The position numbers and the translations under genes are program-made. The notes under the pieces are model-generated. The model did not search any database, was not told the DNA's origin, and saw only the letters and a program-made list of their open reading frames with translations. From assembly GCA_905178155.1 (NCBI GenBank), contig CAJINV010000004.1, forward strand, positions 466,969-530,968: a DNA stretch of 64,000 bases, in the 5' to 3' direction. This DNA comes from Amoebophrya sp. A120. Its lineage: Eukaryota > Protista > Dinoflagellata. Positions 21,901 to 60,900 of the stretch are shown one piece after another. Within the stretch, counting starts at the first letter, position 1. Every line of letters starts with the position of its first letter.

Positions 21901-24900
21901 CACGACATTAGCCGTGATTTTACGTGTATCCAGGAAAAAAAGTGTGTAAATGTAACCTTCTTTGAGAAACAGCATCACAAATTTGCTCTACATGACAGAG
22001 AAAACCTGTCATGCGTGCCTTTTAAGGGAAAACACACATGAAAAGAGGACTTCATGGCTGTCTGGCATGACAGGTGTGCTTCTGTTGCATGTTCTGCAAC
22101 ACAAATTTACACTTACGCAGTTTTGTTTTGCATAACGTGCGTACGAGTTGGAGTTCACAGTGCCGTCCGGCACCACGGCCGATGACGTGGCGGCGAGTTC
22201 GGATATTGTGGCTGCGCTGAAAAACGGCACGTGGTTATCCTGAGTAAAAACGTACCCACACCAGAGTTGTAATGCAGATTTGCAAAGACAGGAAGACTTG
22301 TAATGCGCATCCCCATGAGAGCCATTTCCAATTCCAGTCGTGTTTTGGAATTTGTGATGCTGTGAACAGGATGAGCAGATGGATTTCTGACGCAGCTGGC
22401 CTTGCGAACCTGCACTAGCTACACTACGGACTGCAACTTGTCATGTGTGACTCACAAAACTCCTAGGTTTGTTTTGCAAAATCCCCATCCTGACTCTGGT
22501 GTGGGTATGTTTTTACTCAGGATAGTGGTTCTATCTAAACGCGGATGCGAACATCGACATCGACATTACCGATCTGACAGAGTTCAACGTGTATCCATGG
22601 CAAATTTTTGCTCTACAAGTGCTGACCACTCTGCATGATGATTTTTTCTCCTATTGACCTTTGGCATGACAATTTTTCGGAAGATTCATTTGCTGACAGA
22701 ATTTGTGATGCAGGTTGTAGAAGTACTTACTTGCGCAGCAAATTTGTGTTGCATAACGCCGCCGGCACCTCTACCGTTGACACCTCCGCAAAGTGCAACA
22801 TCACGTACACGGCCCAAGTGCCCAACACGTCCCCCAACACGCTGGCGAATTTCGAGGCCCGGTGGCCCGCGCCGACGCTGGGGGTGACGGGCAGGAATGA
22901 GCTGAAAGATTACTTGACCGAGTCCGTCGCGAAAGCCGCGGGGGCGTCCGGTATTTCCGTCGGGGCGACTTCCCCGGTCAATCCGCAGCCGGCGCCGACC
23001 ACGACGACTACTACGACTACTAGTACAACGACTACAACAACGACTAGTACGACGACAACAACGACTACAAGCACCACAACTACCACGACCACAACCACGA
23101 CGACAACAACGACCACCACCACGACTCTACCATCCATCATGCGTGCGTATCAGCTGGACTTCACGGTTCCGACCGGAACTACTGCCGCGTCGTTGGAGCA
23201 GAACGCAGATTTGGTCTCAGCGCTGAAGAACGGGACGTGGTTTTACTTGGATTCCGCGGCCAGCATCACTTTATCCGTAACGGATATCACCGCCTTCGAC
23301 GTGATTATGGATTGCAAAAATGTCTGGGTCTGGAAGATTCTAAACTTGTAACTAATGCTGTCTCTGGATTCCAAAAAAAAATTGTATGTAGTGAGGTCAC
23401 GAACGTTCTATCCTAGCGGTTTTTTTGCCAGGTCTTATGCAAAACGGCCGGCAGTTTTCAAGCGGCCGGAAGTGTTTTTTGACAAAAAAAATTTCCAATT
23501 ATCAAGCGGCCGGGGCTTTGCCAACAAACAAGCCCGGTCGAAAACTATCGATTCCCGCTTGATAAAACGACGCAGGGGAGCCGGCAAAAGGGGCGCCCTT
23601 CTGAGGCGCCCACCGCCTTAGTTTCTGGCGATTTGGGGCGCCCAAAAATGGGCGCCCAAAAAGCAGCGCTCCGAAAAAAACAGCGAATCCGCATGGTATG
23701 GGCCTCATTTTGCTCCACATTCGGGCCCCGCAACAGACGCCTTCAAAATCCGCCATTTCAGAGGCGGACTGAAGGCCAGAAGATGCGGCATTTTGAAAAA
23801 AAAAAAACAAAAAAAACAAAGTCCGCCAAAAGCAAGAAGCGAATCCGCATGCTATGGGCCCGATTTGGGACTCCCAAGAGGCCGACCCTGGCGCGGGCCC
23901 TGGCGGGGCCATAGCATGCGGGGAAGGTTTTTCGATTCGAAACCAAACGGAGGCCGCCTCTGGATTGAGATTCTTAGCGATCGCCGTGCCGTCGTGCGTA
24001 ACATTACCCACGATGGCATGGTGGGCAGAGCAGTTGCGTCCTTTTTTGGCGTAAAGACAAAAAGACCGCCATGACCTCACTACCTCCGCGGACGCGGCTA
24101 TTATTGGTATTGCGTGACCAGCAAGAGGACTCCAGTTGCAGTTTGTGCTACGCGGAAAGGGCATTTCTCACGCGGTAGAGGCATCACAAAGTCCTGTAAA
24201 AATCTGTGATGCTAGGGCATGCATCACAGACATCATGGATCATTCAAAATATGCACGACAAATCTCAGAATCTTCCAGACCCAGACACTTTTGCAGTGCA
24301 TAGTGATCCCCGATAGCCAACTGGGCACCACCGCGACCCTGAACATCAGCTACACGGTATCCTGTGTAAAAACGTCCCCACACCATAGTTGTCACGCAAC
24401 TCTGCATGCTTAAAATGTTTCTCATGCGGAGCCCCATGAGAAGCATTTTCTAATGGTGTTTTGAAATTTGTCATGCTCCAATCAGCATGAGAGACTAGAT
24501 CTGTAATGCTGCTGAACTAGCTCAAACAGCACTACACTACGCGTCCAAATTTGTCATGCCAAACAGCCAAAGCTTGTGGATTTGTCTAGCCGATTCCCCA
24601 TCTTGACTTATGGGGTGGGTACGTTTTTACATAGGATACACGGCGGAAGTCCCTACGGGGAACACTCTCGCTGCGTTCGAGACGCGGTGGCCGGATCCGG
24701 CGACGGGGGGCATGATTCAAACCCAGAAGGACAAGTTGATGAAGTATCTGCAAGGTTCGGCTCAAGCGGCGCAAAACATCCCCGCCGGGGTGTCTGTCGG
24801 GACAATGGTCCCGGCGCCGAGTCCGACGACTACGACCACGACGACCACAACCACCACGACCACCACTCTGGCGGTGATCATGCGGGCGTACAAAGTGCAA

Positions 24901-27900
24901 CTGGTAGTGCCAGTTGGGACGACTGCAGATGATGTAGTGGCGAACACGGCTGTGACAAATAAGTTGAAGAACGCGACCTACAGCTACTTGGATGCCGATG
25001 CGGACATCAGCTTCCAGGTATCCGATGTGACCGTGTTCAAGGTCCTTGCGAACACAACCGCGGGAACGAAAATCACTTTGGACGTCGAGTACACGGCGCA
25101 GATTCCGCCTGGAGGCGCTGGGAACCTGAACAGCCTATCCGCATTCGAGACGCGTTGGCCGGATCGGGCGAGCTATGGATTGCAAAAGTGTCTGGGTCTA
25201 GAAGATTGCAACTTGTCATGCTGTCTTTGGGTTTGGATTCCAAAAAAATCTGTATTGCGTGACCAGCAACAGGACTCCAGTTTGTGTTACGCGGAGAGGG
25301 CATTTCTCATGCGGAATAGGCATTAGGAAGCCTCTAAAAATCTGTGCTGCTACATCAATGATGTAGCAGCACATAATGCATTAGAGGCATTAATTTTAAT
25401 CATCATACAAAATATGCATGACAAGTCTGCACTCTTCCAGACCGAGACACTTTTGCATTTGATACGAGCGGTGGTTTAACTACCGCACAGCTAGACGAGT
25501 TGAAGAAGATGTTGACTGTGAATGTCGATGCGGCGGGAGTATCGGGGATTTCGGTCGATCAGGGCGCGCAGGTAGCGCCGGCCCCGTCTCCCACGACGAC
25601 GACTACAACGACTACGACTACTACTACTAGTACCACAACAACGGTGGCGGCAGCTGCAACGACCACGAGTACTAGCACCACAACCTCAACTAGCACCACA
25701 GCCAGTACTACTGCAACAGCTGCTGCTGGTGGTAACACGACCAGCACTTCGACCACAACTTTGCCCACCCGGCAGTACGGAGCGTCGATCGATATCCCGA
25801 ATGGGGTGGACCCGGCTACGTACATCCAGGACCCAGATTTGGTTGCGGCGTTCAAGTCAGGGACGGTGACGTATTTGCAGAGCAACGGGCTCTCGGGCAT
25901 CGACACCTCGCAAGTGATCAACTTCCAACTGACGGTTTATGAAATTGCAAAAGCTTTCACAGCACCGCGGTACTTACTAGTTGGCATTGCATTGCAAATT
26001 TAATAGATTTTCGTCACAATTTGAAGAAGAATACAGTTTTTCATGCAACAGATTTCTCAGGAATTAAGGAAGCTAAATTTGTCATGCAAAATTGCGATTA
26101 GCATGGTTGCGAAGATACTTTTGCAATTTTCCATACGGCTTCGTCGTCCACCTTCTTCCTGCTCGGAACCACAAGGCGAACGACGGTTCAGATTGCGCAG
26201 TCGACAGCTGCGCAGAAGAAATCGCAAGCAGAGATGCAAAAAAGCCAGTCCGTGAACCTGGTCGCTTCCTTCCAAGTCAACATCCCCGCTTCGCAGCAAG
26301 CGGCTTTGAACAATGCCTTCCCGGCAGCCGGAATGCCAGCTTCCGCTCTGTCCGCCCTCGGCTCGGCCGTGACGGCAAGTGTGGCGAACAGTGGGGTCGC
26401 TGGGGTCTCCGTCCAGAGCCTGAGCAGCATGCCGGCACCGGGGGTTGCGACAACCACCTCTACCTCTACGACCCCGGTGCCCAGCATCACCAGGGGGTTT
26501 GTGGTGGAGTTGGAGATTCCCGCGACCGAGACTGCGCAGTCCTTGTCGGCCAAAACCGCTTTAGTGGACAAGCTCCGCAACGCGACGTACTTCTATTTAG
26601 ACGAAGATACTGCTCTCTCTTTAGACGCAGCGGACATCAGCTCCTTCCTAGTCGAGCCGGGGGATGACACTGGAGCCGCGGGGTATGTGAACTTAAATGT
26701 CTCCTACACGGCTCAGATCAAACAGCCAAACGCTCTCGCCGACGCTTTGCTCCGGTGGCCGGATCCGGCGACTGGTACTGGTTTATCCACGGATCAAGTG
26801 CAGGAGTTCAAGAAATTGCTGATCGAAAATGTGGAACTAGCGAACCTACCCGGCGTGCAGGTCGGCCCCGCGCCGATTTCCCAAGTACCGTTGTCAACCA
26901 CGACGACAAGCACAACAAGCACGTCGACGATGGCACCGTATGAACATTGACAACTCCCAGCTCGCCTCATTTGTATGGCATAAAAAGCAACACAAGCAAC
27001 CGCAGATGTGTGGCATCCGCATGGCAAACCTGAAGACGGATTCTAGTACTGTTTGAGGTTTTAAAATTTGGCATGCAGATAGTGCGTACAGGCAGGGCAT
27101 TTTATTTGATATTCTGCATTACAAATGGGGGGGGGGGGGAATTGTGCACTCTCATACGCCGAACACGACTTCCACAACCTCGACTACCACCTCGACGAGC
27201 ACTACGACGACCACGTCAACCACGACTACAACAACAAAAGTCTTGGATCGGGCGTTCACGATGAACATCACGATCGAAAATAGCAAGTTCACGCCTGCAC
27301 AAGCTCTTGCGAACGCCGAACTCGCCAGTGCGGTGACCACCGCGACTTTAGATTATTTCAACGACAAGGATAATTCTCTACAATTAGAATACGCTTCGAT
27401 CGTCGATTTGAAACTCGAACAGGGCGCCGCCGCGTTCCTACTGTTCAACAAGTGGCAGAAAATGGAACAAGATGCTTTCTCCTCCAGGCACCCGGGATTA
27501 GTCGCCGTGACCCAGCAAGCAGTGACCGTGCAATCGAGTTTATTGAAGAAAAACGTGTTTTCCGCGAAGGAGATGAAACGAGAGCAGAGGAGAAAATCTC
27601 AAACCGAAGTGAAGGTTGAAGTCACGTTTGGAATTGGCGTGGACTCGGATATTATCGCCGGGAAAATCGCTGCAGTTTGGCCGGAGTCCGGATTGGTCAG
27701 CTCGTCTGGACTACTGACCTTCCTGCAGCCGAAGGTGGACGCGATTGAGGGGATGTTGCTCGGGTCCTTAGCCCCGGCCGCTGCCAACCCGACCACCACG
27801 ACCACGACGACAACAAGCACCACGACGACGACAACGACGACTAGTGTGACGACAACGACCACCACCGTTACCACTACAACCACGACCACAACCACGCCTG

Positions 27901-30900
27901 TCAGCTACGGAACGGTCCAACGGGCGATCGGGTTCTCGCTCGATGTTTCTGCCGCCCCAGATCCCGACCCGACGGCACAGGAGCTGATCTCGAATGACGC
28001 GATCAAGGCAGAAATCGTCAAGGTTTCTGTCGCTACGACCGTCAGCTTCTTAGAAGACGGGGGTGTGTTGGATCTGACGACGGATATGGTCAGTTGTGCT
28101 CTATCGTTGGATACGAACAGCACCGGCGGGCAGAGCAGTTTGCTGCTACAAGAATTGGAGCGCATGTTCTTCGAACAGGAGCAAGCGAGTTTTTTGCAAA
28201 CGCAGAGTGAGAAGTTATCTCTCGTCCAGACGGGGACAAGTACGGCGTTGACGGCGGAGAGGACCAGCAGTTCTTTGACTTCCGCGCAGAGGGAGAAGTT
28301 GGGGATTGAATTGAAAGCCGAGATGGACTCCCAGGTGGAGCTGCATTATTCTGTGGAGTTCATGCGGTTGGAGATGGAAAGGAATAAGAAGTTCCAGGAA
28401 GAATACCACTTCACGCGGAACTTATGCATAGCAAAAGTGTCGTACTACGTACACATCGCATGACAAATCTACTTAAATCTTTTCCAGAAGAAAAATAAAA
28501 TTAATCATGCAGATTCAAGTATAGAAAGCAGATCTGTCATGCGCAACTGGCATTTATACGAGTGCGATACTTTTGCGATGCATAGAATTCCACCGTCCAC
28601 GACCTAGTCATGACCTGCACAATCGACGTAAACGCGAACAACGCACATGAGATAGCTCTCGCCTGGCCGCCGGAGGGGCTGGATTCGAACGAGCTAACCG
28701 GGTTCTTGAATCTCTTCTCCGCAAATTTAGACGCCGATCAGTTACCGTATGAGATTGTCGGGGCGGTCTCCTTGCCGGCGCCGAGTGTGACGACCAGCAC
28801 GACTACAACGACCATTGCGGTTACGACATCCACGACAACGACGACGACGGGGAGGAATTTACACCCGTATTCCATGCTGATCCAGATGGAGATCGAGTAT
28901 GTTTACCCGCGGACGGTGGATACGTTGTTGGTGAATCCTTATTTCCGAGATGCGATCAACACGACGATTTTAAATTTGTTCGACGAGTGGGCTGCTGGGC
29001 TTTTGCCGATGGACATCGTCTACCTGAAGTATGAGGAGTTGAAGAACCAGACGACTGCGACCGCCGATGTGAGCAACACGACTACTTTGCTGCAGAGCAG
29101 CGCCAGCGCCACCAGGGCTGCTCTGCCACCTGGATCTTCTTTGCATCAAGAAAAGCAGCTGTACAAAGATATCAACCTGCATCAGCAAGGGGGTAGTACT
29201 AGTAGCAGCTTCTTGGCTCTCAGTGAAGAAGGACAGGGATCGAGTGAAGTAGAGCTTTCCACTTCCGAAGGCGCTCTGTCTAGTATGCGAAACATCCGCA
29301 ACAGCCTTAACGGCCACCGCCCCGGTACTAGTAGTGGCGAAAGGCTGAAGCACCAAATGAAGATTGCGTTAGGGGATGTGGAAGCGGCTCGCAGAGGCGT
29401 GGAGCAAGCCAGGGAAATGGCGGGGTACCAAACCAAGAAGCACAACCAAGAAAAAGCTTTGCGTGATAGTGTTTCTCTCGTGCGCTCCGACTACACGACA
29501 GGTAAAAAGCACAAGTTGATGACAGGCGCGGCTTTAACTGAACAGAAGCGCCTCGAGTCCGCTCGGATGAAGTTGCAAAAGATCGCGGGTGAAACTGGGA
29601 TCGCTTCGGGAAAGAAAGGCATGCTGATGAAATCTGGGAGCAGTACTAGCTCTGTCACGGTGACACAGTTCTTCGCGCAAGTCACGATCATGATCGAGAA
29701 CATCGATTTAGCGGATGACATTTGGCCCTGGAACACGCAACTCTCGGCGGAAGATGAAGCGGAAGCTTTGAACTTCTTCAAAACCCAGATGTCAATAGAC
29801 GAGCTCCAGGATATCAATTGCGTTCGCTTCACCGGTCACGTGGACCCGTCGATCACGACCACAACAACCTCGACTACAACCACGACGACGACTACCACGA
29901 CAACCACCACGACAACCACGACCACTACCACCACGACTTTAATGCGGAGGCAGTTCGGGATCACGTTTTACTTCGATGATTCTCTCGATGTGGACGACAC
30001 CATGTACGAGATTTTGCCGATGGTGGAGAAAGGGGTTTACGTCTTCTTCGTCACAGAAGGGGTGAATTTGGATGAAGAAGACATCCTGGATTTTGAACTC
30101 GAAGTCAACGCGACCACGTATATGGCAAGCAATAATACCAACACGACCTTGCTTTTGCAGGAAGCCATCCGCACCGCGCAGCAAGCGGCGTTCTTGCAGG
30201 AGTCGATCAAACCATATGGGGTTGTGAGAAAACAGCCAGCGAAAGCGGTGCTGCCCTCATTGGTGAAGCACGAGCGGTATCACGGGGCGCAAATCCCGGT
30301 GGTGCATCCTAGGACAGTAAAGGGAATGGTCGCGGCGGGTGGTAATACCGGTAAAAATTTCGCTGTTGTTCCAGGGCGGGGTACTAGTGGTGGAAGTAAT
30401 CCAGCTAATATGCAGACTAGTCTAATGCAGGACGACAGCAGCTACCTGTACACCGCGCAAGTCGAGCTGGACGCGATCTGCCGCTTCGACATCCGGCCGA
30501 TATCCGCAGCGCTGCAGATGAACATGAACGGCCTTTGGTCTTTGCAGAACGGATATCAAATGTAAAAGTGTCTGGGTCTGGAAGATTGGAACTTGTGATG
30601 CTGCATTTGGATTACAAAAAAATCTGTATTGCATGAGCAGCAAAGGGAATGCATTTTTTGCTACGCGGAGATGGCATTTGTAATGCGGAATAGGCATCAA
30701 GAAGGCCTCAAAAAATCTGTGATGCTAGGGCACGCATCACAGACATCAAGACTTGTGCAAAACCTGCATGACAAGTCTAGAAAATTTCCAGACCCAGACA
30801 CTTTTGCATTTGATAACGGATTAGACGCCAGTAAGACGACCCAACTGCTCGGTGCAATCAAGAACCAGATCGAGACAATCCACAACGTGCAGGGCGTGGA

Positions 30901-33900
30901 AGTTGGCGCGGTGGCGATCATCACCACGTCAACCAGCACGACTACGACCACGACGACAACCACCACGACAACCGTCACGACGACGACCACCACGACGGTC
31001 ACGACAACCACAGGGACTACGTCCACGACGACGACGTCGACTACGACAACTACGATGTACAAAATGCTGCGGAACTTCGAGATCACGATCGAAGTCCCGG
31101 ACGACGCAGACGACACGGAGATCTCCCAGAAGCCGGCACTGATAAAAGCTTTTGTGAATGGAACTCTGAACTATCTACGCAACGCCGCGCCCGTGTTAGA
31201 CACCCAGTTGACAGTCATGACGATTTCGGTCGCCGCGAATCAGACCCTGATGCTGTTGCAGCAGTCGGCGCACGCTGGCGTGAGTAGTAGATCCGGCGTC
31301 GCAGTTTCCAAGAGCAGGAAGGAGTGGGAGCTGGGCAGTGAGAATTTGCCTGGCGCCGTCGCGGATGGTGTCAGAAGTACGAGCTTCTTGCTGGATGACC
31401 AAGGCGACAACGAGCAATCTCAGTCGCAGGAGGACAAAAATAGCTTTTTGCTCGAAAAAGCCGAAATGGCGATTGAGCAAGCCATGAAGCCGAACAAAGT
31501 TGTCGACACGGTCAGAAAATTGTACGAGCCACATTCCTGGAATCTTCAAGATCGATCCACCTGGCTGCTCGCCAGCTCCCCGAACAAGAAGAGAAAGAAG
31601 GCTGAACAAAAAGTAGATCCGGAATTCCTCCCCACTTCTGCGCGATCCTCCTCCCCCATTCTGATTGAACAGGGAAGGAAGGTTCTTACTACAAAAGCCA
31701 CGGCCTTCAGGGATTTGAAACTCGAAGTCAGCTTCTTGGTCGAAATCCCGAAGGAAGACATCACGGCGCTGACCGATCATATGGGAGTGCACAACTCCCC
31801 CTCCCCCTCATTTGTCACGCAAAATCCCCAATCCAGCTGCTGCCTTGTAGCACTGTTTGCATGACAAATTCTTGAAGCCCACACTAGGCGCGTGAATTTG
31901 TCATGCACAGGCTCCACGTGTGCTGGTGTTTGTATTGCCGTTCATGCTATACAAATGAGGGGGAGGGGGAGTTGTGCGCCGTCATAGATCAGTGGCCATC
32001 TTCCGGTTTGTCCTCTTCGCAGATCAATGCTCTAGTAGATTTGATCCGCGCTGCGGTCAGTTACGCGGCGATTCCGGGCGTGAGTGTTCCGGGCGGGGCG
32101 GTGATCACCACACCGGTGGCGGCGACCACGACGACAACTAGTACTACTGTCGCCGCGAATACGACCACGACTACAACCAGCACTACGACGAGTACCACTA
32201 CAGAGACGACAACCACGACGACAATCGCCGCGCTGGAAGTGCTGGAAAGGCGGTTCGAGTTGAACTTCGACATCGATGCGAGTGCCACGGTGGACCCGGC
32301 GGCGCAGATCCTGAACAATCAAGTGCTGCTGGACAACATTGAAGCTGGTATAATACTGCGCTGGTTTTTTGTGGTCAGCCGCAAAGTCTTGGTCTGAGTA
32401 ACATCAAGTGCTGCACTATTTGCGTCGAGTATACGCTGGTGTGTAATGTCTTGCAGCATGCTACCATGGTCAGTAAATCGACCGCTGTCGTGCCATGCTG
32501 TATAATGTTACTCACGATGGTATGAAAGGTCTAAGAAGAGCACGGATCGCTTGTAGAAAAGACGAGCAGCGCTTGCCCGGCCGTGATGCTTCGGACGCAA
32601 CGAGCCTCGACTTGTGCGAGGGCGTCTGGTTTGGTGCTTGAGCGCGCGGATCTTTCACGTTGTTGCGTCAGCGCGAGCCCTTTTTGCGCCAGACGAGCTT
32701 TGAATATGTGTTAAAATTAGCGGTGAATCAGCACGACCTTTCGCTGTGGACGAAGATCCACTTTTTAGGTACTAGCTCTAGCACACGATCGCGCATAACG
32801 ATTTGCAGCATGCTATCGCGGACGTTACATTATCGCCTGCAGCACCATGCTGAAAAAGATTATGCGCGATGGGATACAACAGGTAGAAAATGTCTTGGCT
32901 TAGTTGCCTTCCTTGGATTTGCCTCCTTGGGATCTGTCTTCCTCGGCTTGCCTTCTTGAGATTTGTCGTCCTCGGCCTGCCTTCTTGGGATTTGTCTTCC
33001 TCGGCTTGCGTTCTTGGGATTTGTCGCCCCCGGCTTGCCTTCTTGGGATTTGTCGCCCCCGGCTTGCCTTCTTGGGATTTGTCTTCCTTGGATTTGCCTT
33101 CTTGGAATTTGTCTTCCTTGGCTTGTCTTCTTGGGATTTGTCGCCCCCGGCCTGCCTTCTTGGGATTTCTCGCCCCCGGCTTGCCTTCTTGGGATTTGTC
33201 TTCCTCGGCTTGCCTTCTTGGGATTTGTTGCCCCCTGCTTGTCTTCTTGAGATTTGTCGCCACCGGCCTGCCTTCTTGAGATTTCTTCTTGAGATTTGTC
33301 GCCCCCTGCTCGTCTTCTTGAGATTTGTCGCCACCGGCTCCCCCTTCTTGAGATTTGTCGCCCCCTGCTTGTCTTCTTGAGATTTGTCGCCACCGCTCTC
33401 CTTCTTGAGATTTGTCTCCCTCGGCTTTCCTGGTATGCCTTCTTGAGATTTGTCCCCTCCTGCTTGTTTTCTTGAGATTTGTCGCCACCGGCTTGTCTTG
33501 GCATTTCTTCTTGAGATTTGTCGCCCCCTGCGCCCTGCTTGTCTTCTTGAGATTCGTCGCCGCCGGCTCTCCCTTCTTGAGATTTGTCGCCCCCTGCTTG
33601 TCTTCTTGAGATTTGTCGCCACCGGTCTTCCTTCTTGAGATTTGTCTCCCTCGGCTTTCCTGGTATGCCTTCTTGAGATTTGTCCCGTCCTGCTTGTTTT
33701 CTTGAGATTTGTCGCCACCGGCTTGTCTTGGCATTTCTTCTTGAGATTTGTCGCCCCCTGCGCCCTGCTTGTCTTCTTGAGATTCGTCGCCACCGGCTCT
33801 CCCTTCTTGAGATTTGTCGCCCCCTGCTTGTCTTCTTGAGATTTGTCGCCACCGGTCTTCCTTCTTGAGATTTGTCTCCCTCAGCTTTCCTGGTATGCCT

Positions 33901-48900: not shown

Positions 48901-51900
48901 GCCGGCACCGAATACGACGACTTCAACGACGACCACGACGAGCACCACGACGATCCCGCAGGCGGCGAGGCAGTTCGAGATCGACTTCACGGTGGATTTG
49001 AACATTGTCGCTGTGAAACAGGACATTTTGACCGACCAAACATTGCTAGACGCAGTCTCCGACGGCACTTTAGAGTTTTTGAAGTCCAACGGACTGGTGG
49101 ATTTGCAGAACACGGCGAAGATAATCAACCAGACACTGTCCGAAGTTGCCAACCCAACTGTGCAGGCGAATTCGAGCTACTTGGAGACGTTGTCCGAGTT
49201 TATCTTCACCGGCTCTGCCACCGCGGTGAATTCCATCAATACCCAAGCCTGGACGCCTGGGGTTTTGACCTCCGCGGAATTAGACGCTTTGATCGCAGAC
49301 ATTAACAGCACGGTTATCGCCGCGGGTATCCAGGGTGTGAAAGTCGGGAAAATCATTCCCATGACGGCGCCGACAACCACCACAACGACGACCACGGCCA
49401 GCACGACAACCACCACGACGACGAGCACCACGACGACTTTGGAACTGAAATTGCGCTCGTTTAATATCGACTTGACTGTGGACGATGGGTTCGATTTGAA
49501 CGACGTTGTGCAGGATGCGAATTTATTGCAGTCCTTCATCGACGGGTCGTATGACTTCCTCGTTTCCGCGGGTATGACTAATCTGACTAAATCGCAGATC
49601 GAGGACCAAACGCTGACGATTGTGAACAATACGGCGAATAGCAACAACACGAGCTTTTTGCTCTTGGCGAAAGTTCGGCAGGCGATGCGGGATCAAGAAG
49701 TGACTGTGACCTCCACTTTCGGCATCCGGGGCACGCAAGCGACGTTTGACGAATTGGACGTGGCCTGGGACCCGAGCGGTTTGGGGACCGTGGAATTAAG
49801 TGCTCTAGAGCAGTTTCTGACGGATGCGATTTTGGCAAGTGGGATTGTGGAAGTGACCGTTGGGCACCCTGCATCTCTACCCGCGCCGAACACGACAACG
49901 ACGACCTCTACCACGACGACCAGCACAAACACGACTACCTCGACGACAACTTCTACCACGACAACTTCGACGACCACGACGACGACAACGACCATCCCTA
50001 TCGGGCTGCGGCAGTTTGACTTGGGCTTGATCATCGACGACAACAGCATCAACCGCACGGAGCTAACAAATGCAAATATGTCCGGGTCTGGAAGCTTGGA
50101 ACTTGTAATGCTGTCTTTGGACGATTCCAAAAAAATCTGTATTGCATGACCAGCAACAGGAGTCCAGTTTGTGTAACGCGGAGAGGCGGGAACTTCTCAT
50201 GCGGGATAGGCATTAGGAAGCCCTTTCAAAATCTGTGATGCTAGATCATGCATCACAGGCGTCGCGGATCATGCAGAATCTGCATGACAAACCTGGCAAT
50301 CTTCCAGACCCAGACACTTTTGCAATCCATAGGAGCTTGCGGAGAACGACGTATTGGTGACGGCGATTTCCCTTGGTTCCCTCGGCTTCTTGAAAGCCGC
50401 AGGGATGCCAACGCTGAACCAGACCCAGATCGAACAAGAGAAGATCGAAATTGTTGCTGGGGAGACCGGGGACGAGACGGTCACTATGGAGATCGTCTTT
50501 TCCTTCGGGCTCCGCGGCGACAACGCCACGCAGGAATTACTCGACCAAACGTGGAACGAAAACGGCCTGGCTATCCTATGTAAAAACGTCCCCACCCCAT
50601 AGTCAAGATGGGGAATCGGCTAGACAAATCCACAAGTTTTGGCTGTTTTGCATGACAGATTTGGACTCGTAGTGTAGTGCTTTTGAGGTAGTTAAGCAGC
50701 ATCACAGATCCAGTATACAATGCTGATTGGAGCATGAGAAATTTCAAAGCGCGAATAGAAAACGCTTCTCATAGTGCTCCGCATGAGAGACATTCTCAGT
50801 GTGTGCGTGCAGATTTGCACTACAACTAGTATGGGGCTGAGATGTTTTTAAATACGATTCTGGCGGACGCGGATGCGGAGGCGCTGGAATCTGCGGTTTC
50901 TGCCACTGTTTCCGCTTCGGGCATCAACAGCGTTACGGTGGGCGTAGCCAGCGGCATGCCCGCACCGACCACCACCACGACAACTACGACGACGACGGGA
51001 ATCGACACTCGGGAGTTCGAAATCGACTTCACGGTCGATAACGGAATTATCGCGAACAAGTACGACTTGCTGACAGATTTGGATCTGTTGGATGCGGTGG
51101 CGAACGGAACGTTAGGTTTTCTCAAGGCGAACGGGCTGAAGAACCTGACGGGGTCCGCAGAGTTCTTCAACCAGACTTTGACCTTATCCGACAATGACGA
51201 CAACACTAGTACCATGTTCTTAACCGCGATCTCCTCGTTTGGCGTGAAAGGGGACAACGACACGCGGAACAGCATGACCACCGCGTGGAATGAAGTGACG
51301 TTAACGGCTTCGGAAACGAAGGCGCTGACCGACCAGATTGAGTCTGCGGTCCTTTCCGCGGGCATCCCGGGCGTGCAGGTCGGGATTATCACTCCGATCA
51401 CCGTTACCACGACGAGCACCACGACGACAACCACAACGACCACTACCTCAACGACGACCACGTTGGACGTGCTGGAGAGGCAGTTCGACTTGGATTTGAC
51501 GATCGACGACACTATGAACCAGACTCAGCTGATTCAGGACCCAGATTTGCTGGAAGCTGTCAGGGAGGGGTCGTTCAACTTCCTCTTCGACTCCGGTATG
51601 GTGAACTTGACCCTCGACCAGGTCTTCGACCAGACTTTGTCGATCGCTTCCTGGATATCCTGTGCAAAAATATCGTACTCGTATTTTTGCAGTCATGCAT
51701 TACAAATCTTTTTGTCAAGGTAAATCCGCATCACAAATTTTATTTCTCATGCTGAGAAAATTTGTAATGCATTTGTACGAGTGCGATGCTTTTGCAGTGC
51801 ATACCGGACTCCAGGCACGGCGTTCTTGGTCTTACTCGAGCACCAGGTGAAACTGAGACAGCATAGACGAAGACGCGGCAAGCTTGGATTGCTATCGAAG

Positions 51901-54900
51901 TTCAAGGTGAAGGGCGATAACGAGACGTTAGCATTGTTGAACCAAACCTGGTCGCCTTTGGCTTTGACCCCGTCGCAAACGGACTTACTCGAAACCTCGA
52001 TCAACGACACTATCATTGCAGCCGCGATACCGGGGGTCCAAGTGCATTACGTCGTGCCACTACCGGCGCCGCCACCGACGACGACCACAACGACGACGAC
52101 AACCACGACGACAACGACGGTGTTGACGAGGATCCGGGAATTCGCCTTGAATTTCACCGTGGATGATAACTACTTCGCATTCGCAGATAGGTCAACTTTG
52201 TTCTCCAATGCGCAACTGTTGAACGCCGTTGCGGACGGGAGCATGAACTTCTTGAAATCGAACGGATTGGTAGACTTGACGAACTCATATCCACAGTAAA
52301 TTTCCCGCACACGTACAAATGCGATCTCTGCATGGCAAAACTTGTCTTCTTTCCTAGTTTAGCATGAGAAGTTTTACACTCCAAATTGGTGAAATTTGTG
52401 ATGCATCTTGTACATGTACGGGAAATTTGTATTGCATAACTCAGCAATGGTGCAGGACACGGTGCTGAATCCGAAAGGGCAGTCCGTAAAGGAAAACTCG
52501 ACGGACTTGTACTACTTGGGAGCCGTGGCGACGTTCACGGTTAGTGGAACGGAATCCACTTTGAACAGCATCGACAACACCGCCTGGACGCCCGCGAACT
52601 TGACGGAGGTGCAGACAAAAGCGCTGCTCGCGGATGTGAATGCTTCCGTTGTCGGCTCCGGATTACAAGGGATTCAAGTAGGGCAAATCATTCCGATGGT
52701 GGCGCCGACGACTACCACCACGACAACTCCACCAACCACTACGACCACATCCACGACGACAACTTCGACGGGGATGATATGGAGTTCTCAAATGTTACAT
52801 TCTCAACTGTTACATGAATTTGTAATGCAAGACTGGCAAAATTGGAAGGAGGAAGAAGATTGCGCCTTTTGCATTACAAGTTTGGCGCAGATTTAGATGC
52901 TGTCTAGCCCTCCCGAAATTTGTCATGGGAAACAGCTCGATCATCTGCCGGCTTAAGGTGCTTTTGCATGGCAAATTCATGTAACAGTTTAGAATGTAAC
53001 GTTTGAGAGCGCCATAGATGATTCTCCGCGAGTTCAATGTGGAGCTGCAGATCAACGAAACCGTGTTCAGCAAGGACTATTTGGATTCCGATGTGAACCT
53101 CATCGCCGCTCTGGCCTCCGGCGCGTACAATTTCTTCATTTCCGCGACCGTGCCGGACATCATCGAGACAGATTTGAAGGACCGGAAAATCACGATCTTC
53201 TCCGAAGTTTCCGCAGGGACACCTTTGTGGGACATGGACATCATTTACGGTTTCAGCATTTCCGGGAACAACGAAACCTTGACAAACGTGAACGACACCT
53301 GGTCGGATGCGGGTTTGGCCGGGAACCAGGAAGTTGCGCTTCAGTACGCGGTGCAGCAGGCGATCACTGGTAGCGGGTTGCAGGGACTCAAAGTAGGCGC
53401 AGTGACCACCGGCCCCGCGCCGACGACCACCACGTCGACAACCACGACGACGAACACGACGACCACAACGACGACGACATTACCGACAGACATGCGGCGG
53501 TTCGATTTGGACTTCACGATCAATGAGAATGTGGTTGCGGATAAACAAGTTCTGCTCACTGATATGCAAGAAAAAAACTGTGTAAGTGTAAATCTGTGAT
53601 GCAGAAAATGCAAAACAGTAACACTCATCATGCTGCAATTGCGTCATAGGCTACTATCACACGTGTTTCCACCACGTACTAGCTGCGCATGACAGGTCCT
53701 CCCTGTCATGCAAAGCGAATTTGTGATGCTGCTCTTCCTACAGAGTTCACTTACACAGTTTTTTTCCTGGATGGCAGACCAGTCCCTGTTGAAGGCGATC
53801 GCGGAGGGGTCGGTGACCTATTTGACCGCGAACGGGTTTATGAACATCAGCAACGACTTTGAAATCTACAACACGACCCTAACGGAGGATCCGAACGCGA
53901 CCAGCACGCTGACGGCCGACCCAACTGCGCTGGACACGATTTTCAACTTCTACCTCCGCGGTCAACCGGATACCATGAGCGATTTGCCGCTTGCTTGGGA
54001 CGCGAGTGGATTAACGGCTCCACAGTTGAAAGAGTTGACAAATGCGGTGAACGCGTCGGTTATCGCTGCCAGCATTGCGGGCGTCAAGGTCGGAAAGATC
54101 GCACCTTTGGTCACCCCGACGACAACCACCACGACGAGCACAACGACCACAACCAACACGACGACAACCACCACGACGACTTCCACGACGACAACCACCG
54201 GTCGCGGGCAGCGTCAGTTCAACGTGACAATTGTGATCGACTCTACTTTAGATCCGAACACGGACGTCGCGTTGGACCCGAACGTTTTGACTGCGTTCGG
54301 GGAAGCTGAGTACGACTATTTAAGGCAGGCGGGGATGATTTCCCTTATCAAATACAAAAGTCTACTCTGGGTCTGGAAGATTCATTGTGAGATTTGTCAT
54401 GCTGATCTGGCATGTTGGCCCTCAAATCTGTATTGCGTGGCCACAAACAGCCTCTCTCGCCTGTCATGCAAAAACGCAGCTTCTCATGCGGAATACGCAG
54501 CACAGAAGCACGAAGCAACTTGTCATGCTTGGCGGCGCATTACAGTGCATTTGTTATTGACTGACTTGCAACACAAGTTTCCAGACCCAGACATTTTAGC
54601 ATTTCATATCCCTGACCTTCTCGCAAATCGAAAACCAAACAATCACGATAGAATCGATTGTCCTATCGGGTTCCGGCGCCACCTACATCGCGAACGCGGT
54701 GTCCAACTTCGACGTTGTGGGTTCTGCGGACAACCTATCAAATGCAAAAGTGTCTGGGTCTGGAAGGTTGCAACTTGTGATGCTGTCTTTGGAAGGCAAA
54801 AACAATCTGTATTGCATGACCAGCAAGAGGAGTTCAGTTTGTGCTACGCGGAGTGGGCGTTTCTCATGCGGAATACGCATCAGAAGGCCCTGCAAAAATC

Positions 54901-57900
54901 TGTGATGCTAGGTCATGCATTGCAGGCATCATGGGTTATGCAAAATATGCATAACAAACCTGGCACTCTTCCAGACCCAGACACTTTTGCACTTGATACA
55001 ACCTCGCGCAGCTAGACAACGCCTGGTCCCCTATCAAGAAGAAAAATCCCCCCTCCCCATATCAAAACGGAAATCTGTGATGCAGATTTGTGGTCACAAA
55101 TCAGCTTTGCCATGCTAGAACGGAAAAGATGCGGACTGTAGTGGTGGTTGGCGTGGGAAAGGGTTGCATCTTCAGCATGACAGGAGGCAGCTGGAAGCGG
55201 GAAACAGCATGACAAATTGCCTGCAAAGGAGGCCACAGCTGCGACTCTTGGCATTCTAGCATTACATACAAGTCGATTTGTGTACTCAAATACAGCAGCA
55301 CAAATTTGGTTTTCGATATGGCTATGGGGAAGGGGGATTTTTCCTTTCGATATCCCCTCTTGCAAACGGGCTGGACAGCAACATGACCAAGAAGCTCGTC
55401 GATTTGATCGACCAGAAAATCGCTGATGCGGGCATCACCGGGATCGATGTGTCCGACGTTGCGCCGGCACCAGCGCCAACGACAACGACCACCACAACCA
55501 CCACGATGGGGATCAATTTCAGGCAATTCGAGATTTACTTGACCATCAACGACACCATTGACCCGGACCAGCTGATTGTCGACCCGGATTTACTCGCCGC
55601 ACTGCAGCTGGGTGAGTTCAACTACTTAGTTGGGTCCGGGATGACGAATTTGACGCTATCTGACATCGTCAACCAAACGATGGAGATTTCGAAGCTGTCG
55701 AACCAAACAACGTTGATGCTCATCGAGGTCGCGAGAAAGAAGGGGAAGTTAGTCGCAAAAGTGATTTCCAAATTCGGAGTTCTGGGTTACCAGCCGACTT
55801 TGGATCTACTGGACCAGATTTGGGACGCGTCCGGGCTGTCGAATGTGCAACTGGAGGCGCTGAAAAATGAGGTGAAAGCGACCGTGACGAACGCTGCCAT
55901 TATGGATTGCAAATATGTCTGGGTCTGGAAGAATTGGAATTTGTGATGCTGTTTTTGGACTCGAAAAAAAATTGTATTGCATGACCAGCAAGAGGGGTGC
56001 AGTTTTTGCTACACGGACAGGGCATTTTTCATGCGGAAGGTGCATCAGGAAGCCCTCTAAAAGTCTGCGATGCTAGGTCAAGCATAACAGGCATCATGGG
56101 CCATGAGAAATATGCATGACAAATGTTGCACTCTTCCAGACGCAGACACTTTTGCAATCCATAGCCATTCCCGGCGTGCAATTCGGTCAAATCGCGTCGA
56201 TCGCGGCGCCAACAACGACGACATCGACGACGACAACCTCAACCACCACTACAACGACTTACGGAACGGAGTTACGGAGGTTCGATATTGACTTCACCGT
56301 GAACGATAACTACTACCCGATTAAGGGGGACATTCTGGATGAGCCGGATTTGATCGACGCCTTGTACGAAGCGTCTTTGGAATTCTTAACAAACAACGGC
56401 TTCGTCAACACCACCGGCACGACCGTATCAACTGCAAATATGTCTGGGTCTGGAAGATTCTAAACTTGTGATGCTGTCTCTGGATTCGAAAAAAATTTGT
56501 ATTGCTTGACCAGCAAGAGGACTCCAGTTTGTGCTGCGCGGAGAGGGCATTTTTCATGCGGGATAGGCATCGAGAAGTCCTCAAAAAATCTGTGATGCTA
56601 GGTCATGCATAACTGGCGTCATGGATCATGATGCAAAATATGCATGACAAACCTGCCAATCTTCCAGACCCAGACATATGTGCAATGCATAGACCGTCGG
56701 GTTGACCAACTTCACGCTTACCGACCGCTACACCGGGGCGCTGGCGAACACGAGCTATCTAGAGGCGGACGTGGTCTTTGGTATCACCGGCTCGGCCGCA
56801 ACCCAAACCTCTGCGGTCGCCGCGTGGAACCCGCAGAATTTAACCGCGAACGCAACCGCAGAGCTGATTGACTTGATCAAGGACAAGGTGGCTGCGACGG
56901 GCCTGATCGGGTTCGAAGTGGGGAAAATCGTGCCAGTGGCAACCCCGACCACGATATCAAATGTAAAAATGTCTGGGTCTGGAAGATTGGAACTTGTGAT
57001 GCTGCATTTGGATTGCAAAAAAATCTGTATTGCATGAGTAGCAAAGGGAATGTGATTTTTGCTACGCGAAGATGGCATTTGTAATGCGGAATAGGCATCA
57101 AGAAGGCCTCAAAAAATCTGTGATGCTAGGGCACGCATCACAGACATCAAGACTCATGCAAAACCTGCATCACAAATCTTGCATTCTTCCAGACCCAGAC
57201 ATTTTTACAGTTGATACACGACCACAACGACGACCACGACAGTGACCAGCACGACAACGACAGTGCTGAACACCACGACAACGACGACCACAACCCGTTT
57301 GTTTGAGGAGCGCGAATTTGAACTGTATTTAACGATTGACGATACGATCAACACAACGGCTATGGGAGTGTCAGGATTGAAATCGACAAAGTTGAAGTGA
57401 TTTGTCATGCATAAAATGGATGCCAGCTGTCACCCAGTTTTCAAATGGCGCATGACAAATTTGGGTAGAGCCATGCTGTTTGGGTAAGGAAGACGCCTTT
57501 TGCCATGCTGTTTGGGTAAGGAAGACGCCTTTTGCCATGCTGTTTGGGTAAGGAAGACGCCTTTTGCCATGCTACTTTACCAGCTCTGCTGCTACCCCTC
57601 AGCAGGCTTTCTAAAATCTGCCTCCCTTGCCAACTCTGCAAGACAGGCATTTTGTGTGTTGCATTTTATGCATCACAAACTATTTCAACTTTGACGATCT
57701 CAATCCTGACGCTTCCATAACGGCTTTAATGGTGGACCCGAACTTGCTGACCGCTCTGGTCGAGGGAACGTGGTCATTCTTCGATCTGGAGCAGACCAAC
57801 GTCACGATTGACATGTTCCAGGAGGAGAATATCCTGTGCAAAAGTATCGTACTCGTAGTAATCGCAATCATGCATTACAGATTTCCATCTCAAGGTAAAA

Positions 57901-60900
57901 CAGCATCACAAATTACATTTGTCACGCTGACCGAATTTGTAATGCGATTTCTACTTGTACGATGCTTTTGCAATGCATAGAGAATTTGATGATCTTATCT
58001 TCCACGAATCAAACAACAGTTGCGGCTGCGAACACTTCCAGTTCGTCTGTCTTGATGCTGGTGCAGGTGGCGAAGAAGAAGGGGAAACTGGTGCTGCAAC
58101 TGGTCTTCAACTTCAAGATCTACGCGGACACACCGACGCTGAACATCGTGGACTCGGTTTGGCTCGACGCTGGCTTGTCTGTGAACCAGGTTTCGAGCTT
58201 GAAGTACGAAATCACCGAAAGTGTAAACAACGCGGGGATCCAAGGGGTCCAGGTGGGGCAGATTTCCTCGGTTGCGGCCCCCACGACGAGCACAACGTAT
58301 GACAGTGGACAACTCCCCCTCCCTCTCATTTCTCATGCGAAATACCCAATCCACTCTTTGCCTCCTGGCACTGTTTGCGTGACAAGTTCTGGCAGCCCAA
58401 AGAGGACTACACTCCATTGCCAACCTGTCATGCAAAGCCGGCATTCTTGCTGATGCTTGTATTGCCGTTCATGCAATACAAATGAGGGGGAGCAGGGGGA
58501 TTAGTTGTGCACTGTCATACAACGAGCACGAGTACGACAAGTACCACGAGCACCACAACGACCACAACGGGCTTCCGGATTCGGCAGTTCGACATTGAAT
58601 TCACCGTGAACTTGACTGTCCATCCGAACAAGGAGGACTTGCTTTCGAACATCAAACTGCTCAAAGCATTATCTGAGGCCAGTGTCTATGCATTGCAAAT
58701 GTGTCTGGGTCTGGAAGGTTGCAACTTGTGACGCGCATTTCACAATACAGACAAATCTCTCATGCATAGGCAGCAAGAGACGTCCACTTTCTGTTACCAA
58801 AGTGGTGAATTTATCATGCGGAGTAAGCAATGCGGAAGCTTCTCGAAATCTGTGATGCTTGAGCTTCTATGACAGACATTCTGTGTCATGCAAAAGCAGC
58901 ATGACTCTTCCAGACCCAGACATCTTTGCAATGCATAGTGTCAACTACTTGAACGCCAATGGGTTTGACAACAGCACGGGGACGGGAAAGCTGATCAACC
59001 AAACGCTGGTGCAGATCGCCAACGCTTCGGCCGCCGCGATGGACCCGTTCTTGCAGACGACGGCAAAATTCGCCATTGTCGGTGACAATCAGACGGTGAT
59101 GTCTGTCGATGCAGCGTGGTCGCCGGGGGTTCTAAACGTGAACCAGACGAAGGATCTCGTCAACGCGGTGAACGCAACCGTGATTGTCGCGAACATCGCG
59201 GGTGTGAAAGTTGGGAAAGTCATTCCAAAAGCGGCCCCGACGACCACGACGACGAGCACCACGCCTGCAGAGACGACGACCACCACTTCGACCACAACAA
59301 CCACTTTGGGTCTGTACTACCGGCAGTTTGTGATCGACCTGACTATAGACGATAGTATCAACAAGACGGAGCTAGCGTCGGACCCGAATTTGCTGACCGC
59401 GTTCAGCCAGGCGAGTTGGGACTTCCTGATCGCGCAGGGCATGACAAATCTCGCCTACGCCCAGATTGAAAAGCAGTCGATCACGATTGTTTCCCAGTCG
59501 GGCAACTACACGACGAACACGTCTGCCGTGATTCTGTTGGAGTTATCCACCAAGCGGGTCAGGAGAGAATTTGTGGAAGTGGTTTCCAGCTTCGCGATTC
59601 GGGGAGACGCGACGCTGAAGCAGGAGCTGGACACGTACTGGAATCCGGTGACACTTTCTTCGAACGAGACGGATACTTTGCAGCAACTGCTCGATGACGC
59701 GGTTTACCTTGCGGGAATTGCGGGCGTGCAAGTAGGACAAATCACCCCGTTGCCCGCGCCGACGACGACCACAACCACGACAACCTCTACGACGACCACC
59801 ACCACGACGACGACGTTGGCGACAGAGACGAGAATCTTTGACATCGACTTCACGGTCGACCCCGGGGTGGATAAAGCTGCGCTACTGTCGAACAGCTCCG
59901 ACTTGCCACAGGCGGTGGCGCAGGGTGCGTTGGACTTTCTCACGGCTGCCGGATTTGTGAATTCCACCGGTGGTGCGGCGGAAGCAGCGGGCTTCGAGTT
60001 GTTACCGTTGAACAACAGCGCCGCTAGCAGTTCGGCGTACCTGGAGACGCAGGGAACGTTGAAATTGAAGGGAGACCCGACTGCGGTTAGTTCTATCGAA
60101 AGCTCCTGGACCGAGCCTCTGTCCGATACACAAACCAAACAGCTCCTTTTATCCTGAGTAAAAACGTACCCACACCAGAGTCAGGATGGGGATTTTGCAA
60201 CACAAACCTAGGGGTTTTGTGAGTCACGCATGACAAGTTGCAGGCTGTATTGTAGTGCAGTTTAGCAAGGGAAGCCGCATAACAAATCCACCTCCTCATC
60301 CTGTTCACAGCATCACAAATTCCAAAACACGATTGGAAATTGCTCTCATGGGGATGCGCATTACAAGTCTTCCTGTCTTTGCAAATCTGCATTACAACTC
60401 TGGTGTGGGTACGTTTTTACTCACGATACCTTTCCGCGATCAACGACACTGTGATAGCTTCCAACATTCCTATGGCGATCTCAACTGTTACATTCTCAAC
60501 TGTTACATGAACTTGTGATGCAAGAACTGGAAAAGTGCAAGGGGGAAGGTTGCACCTGTAGCATTACAAATTCCGCACAGATTTAAGTGCGGTTTGGGCC
60601 TTCGCAAATTTGTCATGCGGAGCAGCTTGATCGTGAGGATGATGATGCTGCTTTTGCATGACAAATTCATGTAACAGTTGAGAATGTAACAATTGAGAAT
60701 CCCATAATTCCTGGCGTGAAAGTCGGCCGGGTGGTGCCCAAAACGACGACCACCACAACGACATCCACCACCACGACCACGACGACTTTCGGTCTGTATC
60801 TCCGGCAGTTCGACATGGATTTAACGATCGACGACACCATCATCACCGACCAGAACGCCGTGCTCACCGATCCGGACGTTTTGAATGGGTTGATGACGGG

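Follow-up and report, generated by a model that had tools for sequence, protein, structure and literature searches.

The 52 inserts that interrupt the gene filling the window, by which we mean the whole 64,000-nucleotide stretch of DNA analysed, are probably (roughly three chances in four) inverted-repeat elements of the Amoebophrya A120 introner type that are removed from pre-mRNA, each with one copy of its target duplication, by a machinery that reads their mirror-image ends and not GT-AG. From the sequence, we strongly infer that removal takes place in both orientations; that it occurs at the RNA level in this gene is suggested by frame logic together with published RNA-seq for the element class. 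The window is a single frame of 15,394 codons, and once the 52 elements, each with one duplication copy, and two other introns are taken out it contains 0 stops, where about 26-51 would be expected at 2-4% neutral drift. The main features, the element set and the TA-flanked element being entered without strand, are:

3..63999, + strand, gene in which every element sits: a single frame of at least 15,394 codons, both ends open, with 0 stops after removal
910..61451, full set of 52 elements, 148-359 nt, plus two of 997 and 1,264 nt
32348..34254, + strand, putative GT-AG intron of the ordinary kind, 1,907 nt, within this gene, proposed from frame restoration
37005..38896, inverted-repeat element of another kind, TA-flanked, 1,892 nt; the frame is restored when it is removed with one TA

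The set was drawn from 69 candidates, with 46 kept, 23 dropped as fortuitous pairings within coding or repeat DNA and 6 added later. A perfect 5-bp target duplication flanks 35 of the 52 elements, and 51 contain an in-frame stop, the remaining one shifting the frame. Since the duplication copies differ at 22/260 sites, the inserts are not fresh. In related loci, 323/420 element calls have a perfect 5-bp duplication (overlapping loci counted twice). Fifteen families common to the window and these loci take in 362 of 406 distinct elements, 12 of the 15 being present in both orientations on related contigs. Proteins bearing the name Amoebophrya sp. A120 are encoded at loci that share these families, and the host is likely an Amoebophrya of the A120 type. 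The inverted ends are TAT...ATA, and either strand reads TAT-N7-A-rich ... T-rich-N7-ATA; TAT is found at 98-100% of 188 ends on either side and A at positions 11-13 in 81-90%. No letters are fixed in the target duplication, and the terminal consensus is TAT[CG]..., with a fixed CAG absent.

Copies of the same element lie in both directions within this one gene. The original prediction described E52 as a close reverse-complement copy of E16, and alignment bears this out: E16 and reversed E52 share 90% global identity, and with the terminal repeats trimmed they agree at 86% reversed versus 50% forward, shuffles reaching at most 51%. When the opposite-orientation pairs that it named were aligned, 11/11 proved closer reversed than forward, all above the shuffle maximum. 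These elements are listed below without strand and with inner identities as reversed/forward; E numbers other than E16 and E52 were assigned by order along the window.

22236..22524, E16, family 3, 289 nt; inverted ends 27/28 paired, duplication GTGGT, in-frame stop at the second codon
60150..60428, E52, family 3, 279 nt; opposite to E16, duplication CCTTT
24358..24638, E19, family 3; orientation as E16
50572..50859, E37, family 3; orientation as E52, 83% to E19 reversed (inner 0.82/0.51)
39979..40257, unnumbered family-3 element; orientation as E16
9124..9384, E11, family 0; sole minority-orientation copy among 15 clustered window copies
34792..35057, E28, family 0; majority orientation, 90% to E11 reversed (inner 0.90/0.53)
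55901..56163, E45, family 0; majority orientation, 89% to E11 reversed (inner 0.92/0.49)
3157..4420, E3, family-0-like, 1,264 nt; nested 956-nt inverted-repeat element at 3398-4353, ends and duplication intact (inner to E11, with the nested insert taken out, 0.73/0.47)
52288..52438, E39, family 9; opposite to E32 and E35
40744..40894, E32, family 9; opposite to E39 (inner 0.77/0.49)
47734..47883, E35, family 9; opposite to E39 (inner 0.76/0.45)
7127..7362, E7, family 6; opposite to E40 and E53
52778..53016, E40, family 6; opposite to E7 (inner 0.66/0.52)
60471..60706, E53, family 6; opposite to E7 (inner 0.72/0.55)
53563..53773, E41, family 2; opposite to E15 and, weakly, E12
21927..22134, E15, family 2; opposite to E41 (inner 0.62/0.45)
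9905..10116, E12, unclustered distant relative of family 2; weakest pair, with E41 (inner 0.60/0.49)

The further claim that all elements lie in the same + strand frame holds in the sense that one + strand frame results after removal.

The extent of removal is indicated by two annotated A120 proteins, P0007 and P0001, which equal loci L068 and L038 minus the element and 5 bases at 15/15 and 3/3 junctions, respectively. These 18 junctions take in both orientations, family 0 occurring both ways in each locus and family 2 both ways in L068. The strain of the two loci differs from A120, by one residue in P0007 and by more in P0001; because of the age of the inserts, the A120 copies of L068 and L038 probably carry the same ones. 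Alignments of transcripts and proteins underlie the A120 gene models (PMC7789003 section 25), and P0007 aligns gaplessly with a distant homologue at 12/15 junctions. Removal of the element and only 2 bases, giving an intron NT...AN and one extra codon per site, was rejected because both annotated proteins give the 5-base version at 18/18 junctions, stop counts being undecisive between the two (3/189 versus 1). Registers that leave element bases in the exon are disfavoured, as they create stops at 4-47 of 189 junctions. One element, L043:1008-1119, was excluded as mis-assigned. Mismatches between duplication copies fall at 32/329 third codon positions versus 26/611 sites otherwise (p=0.006), and the third-position ratio is about 1.9 in both orientations, albeit on small numbers (majority 13/188 vs 13/362; minority 8/101 vs 7/169).

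Orientation is unevenly distributed in family 0 (54:25, p=0.0015; 14:1 within the window), in family 5 (9:1, p=0.02) and, at p=0.06, in family 2 (11:3), and even in families 1, 3 and 4 (15:11, 8:6 and 6:6), counts that leave out 196/406 elements without a safe gene strand. The predicted orientation independence of removal thus stands in part: the 15,394-codon frame needs both orientations gone, whereas equal efficiency is less secure. Because these two families are biased, the efficiency of removal may differ between the orientations. It is conceivable, at clearly less than even odds, that both orientations are removed but unequally, with interior sequence or mirrored motifs favouring one and selection having shaped the ratio. 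This would fit the biases of families 0, 5 and 2, and one-orientation bias is also reported for Polarella classes in excerpts of a preprint (bioRxiv 2020.10.14.339549), but families 1, 3 and 4 are even, minority-orientation copies are no more decayed and occur in conserved genes (KIN17 and a sugar dehydratase), and a transcription-linked insertion bias would yield the same ratios.

A conventional GT/AG pair for each orientation would have accounted for two-way removal, but GT-AG is possible at only 8/189 junctions (2/52 in the window), and GT, GC or GA with AG at 17/189. A GT-AG hidden in other frame-keeping registers was also considered and rejected, being possible at only 28/189 junctions. 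Both element ends are equally conserved whichever of them comes first in the direction of transcription; none of 22 tests for role-dependent conservation gave a difference (lowest p=0.07), and polar constraint, as from a branch point, was not found in families 0 and 1 (79 and 26 copies; modest power). A UNAC core lies at a median of 46 nt from the 3' end in 156/188 elements and is mirrored near the 5' end in 153. The GCATNACAA motif has mid-element occurrences too and may be a transposase site only. An end-to-end stem is predicted in 42/49 elements as transcribed and in 41/49 reversed. The proposal that recognition uses symmetric features agrees with the mirror symmetry of every conserved signal (TAT, the A5 run, the stem and the GCATNACAA motif), but the predicted stem is weak in 7/49 elements; as these must still be removed, the stem alone is not the whole signal. 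The polarity of spliceosomal introns, which had been presented as an obstacle, was overstated, given that the same preprint excerpts report either-orientation introners for Aureococcus and Polarella. Symmetric ends could supply each orientation with its own donor-like and branch-like motif.

We propose that a DNA transposase would insert the element in either direction, that the element ends would pair as a stem in the RNA, and that distance from this stem, in the direction of transcription, would set the cut. The most likely cut lies 1 base before the stem and 4 after it, giving an intron N-TAT...ATA-N4. Judged from these sequences, the cut looks polar relative to the transcript; if it is, the symmetry therefore belongs to the element only and not to the reaction. 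E12 provides one case against the favoured cut, the mismatch at base 2 of its duplication favouring the downstream copy, and the direction of mutation, as a marker of the intronic duplication copy, gave no clear signal at bases 1-4 when judged by eye. The donor would be N-UAU with its first base free, and the mirrored GCAUNAC motif, which lies some 46 nt short of the 3' end, may serve as the branch site. In Table S4 of PMC7789003, the second base is T in all 9 of the predominant boundary pairs of A120. The enzyme is most likely a divergent spliceosome, which we give slightly better than even odds within the RNA-level reading, with a separate nuclease-ligase distinctly behind. U1 snRNA was not detected in A120, which retains U2, U4, U5, U6 and 83/89 spliceosomal proteins (PMC7789003).

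Taken as a full explanation, a spliceosome-independent route is rather unlikely: a structure-specific endonuclease would cut at set distances from the stem formed by the ends, and the exons would be joined by a ligase, leaving a linear or circular intron, as proposed for euglenids. Boundary letters are not fixed, lengths from 148 to 1,264 nt are tolerated, nested insertion included, and U1 is the snRNA that escapes detection, while Euglena introns require paired ends with fixed 3 and 5 nt spacers (PMC12501133) and are reportedly released as circles (review PMC11282704). The retained snRNAs and spliceosomal proteins argue against such a route, as do the resemblance of the favoured 5' end N-UAU and of the UNAC core to spliceosomal signals, and the seven weak stems.

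Excision from DNA in an active stage, as with ciliate internal eliminated sequences, such that the mRNA never contained the elements, is very improbable. It would give transposon ends with a target duplication and restore the empty site exactly, but the mismatch data indicate a cut that is polar along the transcript, and we know of no separate somatic genome in Amoebophrya. Moreover, the elements are treated as RNA-seq-supported introns of the assembled genome (PMC7789003). That the gene is dead and the elements plain random-orientation insertions never removed is barely credible and already largely refuted: subtracting any insertion with its duplication restores the old frame by construction, and expression of the gene was not observed, but a dead gene would not account for the stop-free frame, the third-position bias of the mismatches, or the same pattern in KIN17 and the dehydratase, which have annotated proteins.

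The elements are closest to the A120 introners of Farhat et al. 2021 (PMC7789003), which have an inverted repeat of 8-20 nt or more consisting of TAT, seven variable bases and at least three A, and a direct repeat of 3-5 nt at exon borders (5 bp in the Fig. S19 legend). The window elements match these in TAT ends, direct repeat and a mean length near 240 nt, and are alike in the lack of a boundary dinucleotide rule, the many families and the hairpin model. That paper leaves open the border position and the mechanism by which tens of thousands of non-canonical Amoebophrya introns are removed; in its main and supplement text, element orientation goes unmentioned, 'orientation' being used of genes only and 'strand' being absent. 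We came across no claim of orientation independence for Amoebophrya. Our orientation counts, symmetric conservation test, fixed removal of element and 5 bases, and likely cut position are additions to this picture.

Introner-like elements of Polarella glacialis and Aureococcus anophagefferens are alike in DNA-transposon origin and target duplications, and several classes make introns either way with one orientation favoured, according to excerpts of the preprint (bioRxiv 10.1101/2020.10.14.339549; Aureococcus as cited there). As described in those excerpts, they differ in having GT, GC or GA donors and splice sites supplied by the end of the element or by a duplication whose sequence is constrained, whereas here the duplication is free. 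Nonconventional introns of euglenids, an unrelated lineage with a likeness in form, also lack GT-AG, have paired ends and a proposed MITE origin, and carry a self-complementary terminal motif from which the two cuts lie at unequal but fixed distances (PMC12501133; PMC11282704). They differ in that their motif is CAG/CTG (+4 and -8), their spacers measure 3 and 5 nt and a purine follows the 3' site, while the window elements have TAT/ATA, spacers that are probably 1 and 4 nt, long repeats specific to each family and an intact 5-bp duplication. The GT (or GC) donor and AG acceptor of U2-type spliceosomal introns are not those of the elements. Like MITEs, non-autonomous TIR DNA transposons, the elements are short and non-coding, with terminal inverted repeats, a fixed-length duplication, either orientation and repeated subterminal motifs, a placement by structural likeness; they differ in being dense in coding exons without killing the gene.

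Opposite-direction pairs of one element in one gene limit the signal to mirror-symmetric ends. We consider it possible, though somewhat short of an even chance, that identical transposon ends are a complete direction-free splicing code, in which a U1-less machinery cuts 1 before and 4 after the TAT...ATA stem at any letters. If so, any insertion, in either direction, would be repaired without trace in the mRNA, and the result would be a general tolerance system in which a transposon could spread within coding exons almost free of cost, neither junction dinucleotide being constrained. Mismatched duplications let ordinary RNA-seq reveal a cut position that identical repeats mask, and a cut at N-TAT...ATA-N4 both ways would provide a precise gene-finding rule for the lineage and a target for an enzyme search. 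A scarless, direction-free, sequence-free intron would also interest designers of splicing tools. The surprise is limited, since the elements, the hairpins and introners working both ways are already in print; in the preprint excerpts, the two-way introners described (Aureococcus, Polarella) rely on defined splice sites.

No transposase was seen in the frames of the window, and its 64,000 bases gave 0 Rfam matches at gathering score. When the window exons were searched against 7,980 candidate proteins, 707-2,015 residues in length, none proved to be a named protein of this gene, and a second search returned 4 matches, two short relatives and two weak ones, none of them a named protein of the gene. 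Three pieces of the host protein gave no Pfam match above the curated cut-off. Four RNA runs compared with 42500-62000 left its exons uncovered and yielded no usable junction; nearly all their matches were partial and fell on element-like or Thr-repeat sequence of other loci, which has no bearing on splicing. The host protein consists of repeated domains of about 150 residues each with Thr-rich linkers between them, Thr making up 2,941 of its 15,394 residues.

A search for repeat-flanked inverted ends returned 69 candidates in the window, of which 46 were kept and six weaker ones were added at leftover frame breaks; the other 23 were discarded as chance pairings. The resulting 52 elements are 148-359 nt long, apart from two of 997 nt and 1,264 nt that have extra DNA inserted within. 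They start with TAT and end with ATA, a few deviating by one base, and their 5-bp flanking duplication is perfect in 35/52. All but one contain an in-frame stop, and the remaining one shifts the frame. Removal of each element plus one duplication copy at all sites yields three frames of 8,313, 649 and 6,478 codons, leaving two frame breaks:

32348-34254, GT-AG intron
37005-38896, TA-flanked inverted-repeat element

When these are also removed, the window becomes a single stop-free frame of 15,394 codons, in agreement with the original prediction that the elements lie within one frame. The encoded protein consists of repeated domains joined one after another by Thr-rich linkers, and a Pfam search with three pieces of it found no match above the cut-off.

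The same prediction held that single elements occur in both directions, E52 (60150-60428) being a reverse-complement copy of E16 (22236-22524). With one of them reversed, the two share 90% identity; after trimming of the terminal repeats the figure is 86% reversed against 50% forward (shuffle maximum 51%). With this pair counted in, 11/11 named opposite-orientation pairs are closer reversed than forward, the weakest being E41/E12 (0.60 against 0.49; E numbers were assigned by order along the window, coordinates having been given for E16 and E52 only). A search of metagenome_contigs with the element-end pattern retrieved at least 155 stretches (151 loci used), from one assembly throughout. Window and loci together hold at least 406 distinct elements, 362 of which fall into 15 families among the matches listed, and the 6,031 pairwise links across the window and listed loci contain no orientation conflict. 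Gene strand could be assigned for 210/406 elements of the window and listed loci, and both orientations are present in 12/15 families, the other three having three or fewer assigned copies. In the window and listed loci, orientation is even in families 1 (15:11), 3 (8:6) and 4 (6:6), stands at 11:3 in family 2 (p=0.06), and is uneven in family 0 (54:25, p=0.0015) and family 5 (9:1, p=0.02). This unevenness is the chief result against fully independent orientation; both directions occur and both appear to be removed, but strict indifference to direction may not hold.

At the element ends, all four bases occur at each position of the duplication. A GT-AG pair is possible in any of six registers at just 8/189 junctions in the window and listed loci, and G[TCA]-AG at 17/189, so that the conventional GT/AG pair named beforehand as counter-evidence is largely missing from these junctions. 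Base frequencies along the 5' end are the same as along the reversed 3' end (TAT 98-100%, A at positions 11-13 81-90%). Across 184 elements there are 182 copies of the motif TTGTVATGC and 173 of its mirror, with maxima near each end, against two in 46,446 exon bases. With each end serving as its own control in the opposite role, none of 22 tests on end segments of families 0 and 1 showed a difference in conservation (lowest p=0.07), and an end-to-end stem is predicted for 42/49 folded window elements as transcribed and 41/49 reversed (p=0.47). Given equal end profiles, a mirrored motif, no difference between roles and a stem either way, all conserved signals detected are mirror-symmetric. Recognition by symmetric features is thereby supported in part; the predicted stem is weak in 7 of the 49 elements, and the cut appears polar.

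Since removing an insertion restores a frame automatically, exon decay after insertion had to be tested. Paired duplications in the window mismatch at 22/260 sites; neutral change of 2-4% would be expected to produce 26-51 stops, and none is observed. Duplication mismatches are enriched at third codon positions (32/329 sites versus 26/611 elsewhere, p=0.006; 188 junctions, window and listed loci), as expected when one copy remains coding, and the ratio is similar, on small numbers, whether elements lie in the commoner or rarer direction relative to the host gene. The lack of stops and the third-position bias, alike for both orientations, suggest that both are removed before translation. A dead host gene is unlikely beside these figures. 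RNA data under the same species label, comprising three runs of raw reads and one set of contigs, did not cover the exons of 42500-62000 and showed no junction. In RNA runs X5-X7, stacks of 100-450 reads at 50580-50678, 53673-53714 and 56952-57003 consist of element sequence of other loci, some of it joined to flanks, and could represent retained elements, pre-mRNA or amplified DNA.

Annotated proteins provide a second view of removal. Exons of two metagenome loci, L038 and L068, match at 100% proteins named Amoebophrya sp. A120, namely P0001 (KIN17) and P0007 (a polysaccharide-biosynthesis dehydratase), respectively. P0007 matches L068 minus element and one duplication copy at 15/15 junctions, with family 0 present in four copies of one orientation and one of the other, and family 2 once in each. 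P0001 matches L038 so processed at 3/3 element junctions (orientations one versus two), beside which L038 has one GT-AG intron. Against a 46%-identical homologue, P0007 is ungapped at 12/15 junctions, the other three lying in or adjoining gapped loops. According to section 25 of PMC7789003, ordinary predictors failed on A120, and its gene models were therefore based on alignments of transcripts and proteins. The loci come from a different strain, with P0007 differing by one residue; as some elements nevertheless have mismatched duplications, the inserts are presumably old and A120 probably holds them too. The dehydratase gene (L068:2122-7276, 357 residues) has 15 elements, no ordinary introns and exons between elements as short as about 13 nt, making it a good test gene.

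The cut position can be read from mismatched duplications, by which copy acts as exon (elements are named by window start). At base 1 the exon agrees with the upstream copy (P0007; element 53563, where 6/8 paralogues have T; the other copy yields one stop), as it does at base 2 (P0001; element 20134; the other copy again yields one stop) and, on weak evidence, at base 4 (elements 22592 and 5939). At base 5 it agrees with the downstream copy (P0007; element 4480, where 8/8 paralogues have G). Element 9905 is contrary at base 2; the evidence from 61285 is weak, and 51656 and 25938 give none either way. The cut would thus follow base 2, 3 or 4, with base 4 the best choice and N-TAT...ATA-N4 the resulting intron. 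In Table S4 of PMC7789003, T is second in all nine predominant A120 boundary pairs, which is consistent with this form, though read aligners may bias such pairs; Figs. 3 and S19-S25 of that paper may also bear on the border. A symmetric element combined with a transcript-polar cut accounts for the finding, direction being supplied by the transcript.

The ends are symmetric, the duplication sequence is free and the frame is restored; the best explanation as a whole, to which we assign a probability of about 0.75, adds that elements would be removed from RNA, their ends pairing with each other and the cut leaving one base before the element and four after. A UNAC core lies at a median of 46 nt from the element 3' end; we take it to resemble the branch consensus, and N-UAU to resemble a donor whose first base is free. 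Together with the retention in A120 of U2, U4, U5, U6 and most spliceosomal proteins, U1 going undetected (PMC7789003), these features tilt the choice of enzyme slightly towards a divergent spliceosome. The main rival is a separate nuclease-ligase of the kind put forward for Euglena (PMC12501133 and PMC11282704). Excision of the elements from DNA, rather than from RNA, is unlikely.

The same elements are described for A120 in PMC7789003, whose accessible text mentions orientation for genes only. Introns created in either orientation are reported for Polarella and, by citation, Aureococcus (bioRxiv 2020.10.14.339549, in the portion available), and the accessible parts of PMC12130899 and PMC9860276 do not discuss Amoebophrya element orientation. 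Full-text searches, mostly of papers outside subscription journals, found no statement that Amoebophrya introns are orientation-independent. The finding is real and belongs to a known class by every feature testable. Orientation independence lacking any boundary dinucleotide, combined with a likely fixed cut, adds a new and testable property to that class and does not amount to a new kind of system.

The host protein is longer than 15,394 residues and is without known family; its repeat differs from those of the giant A120 repeat proteins (about 20,000 residues) proposed as glycofibril cores, as far as these are presented in the available part of bioRxiv 2025.09.30.679562. The element at 37005-38896 (1,892 nt) has inverted ends, internal palindromic repeats and TA flanks instead of a 5-bp duplication. 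The frame is restored when it is excised together with one TA, no GT-AG pair able to do so was seen there, and its geometry, unlike that of the 52 elements, may require another removal rule. Inside the GT-AG intron, the minus strand of 32800-34100 carries a Lys/Arg/Gln-rich tandem-repeat tract with three frames open for 433, 326 and 398 codons; flanked by alike short segments near 32432-32522 and 34107-34198, it is possibly another nested element. A 956-nt element with CAGGGG ends is nested at 3398-4353, and element 23306-24302 holds about 700 extra nt, the outer ends being intact in both cases. Insertion phase is skewed at 188 junctions from the window and listed loci, the duplication ending at codon position 1 in 94 versus 47 and 47 (p=8e-6) with the skew present in both sets, which may reflect target preference or selection. 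Exon stretches at 11426-20133 (8.7 kb) and 40900-46150 (about 5 kb) are element-free, and elements are densely clustered elsewhere, as at 50000-61500.
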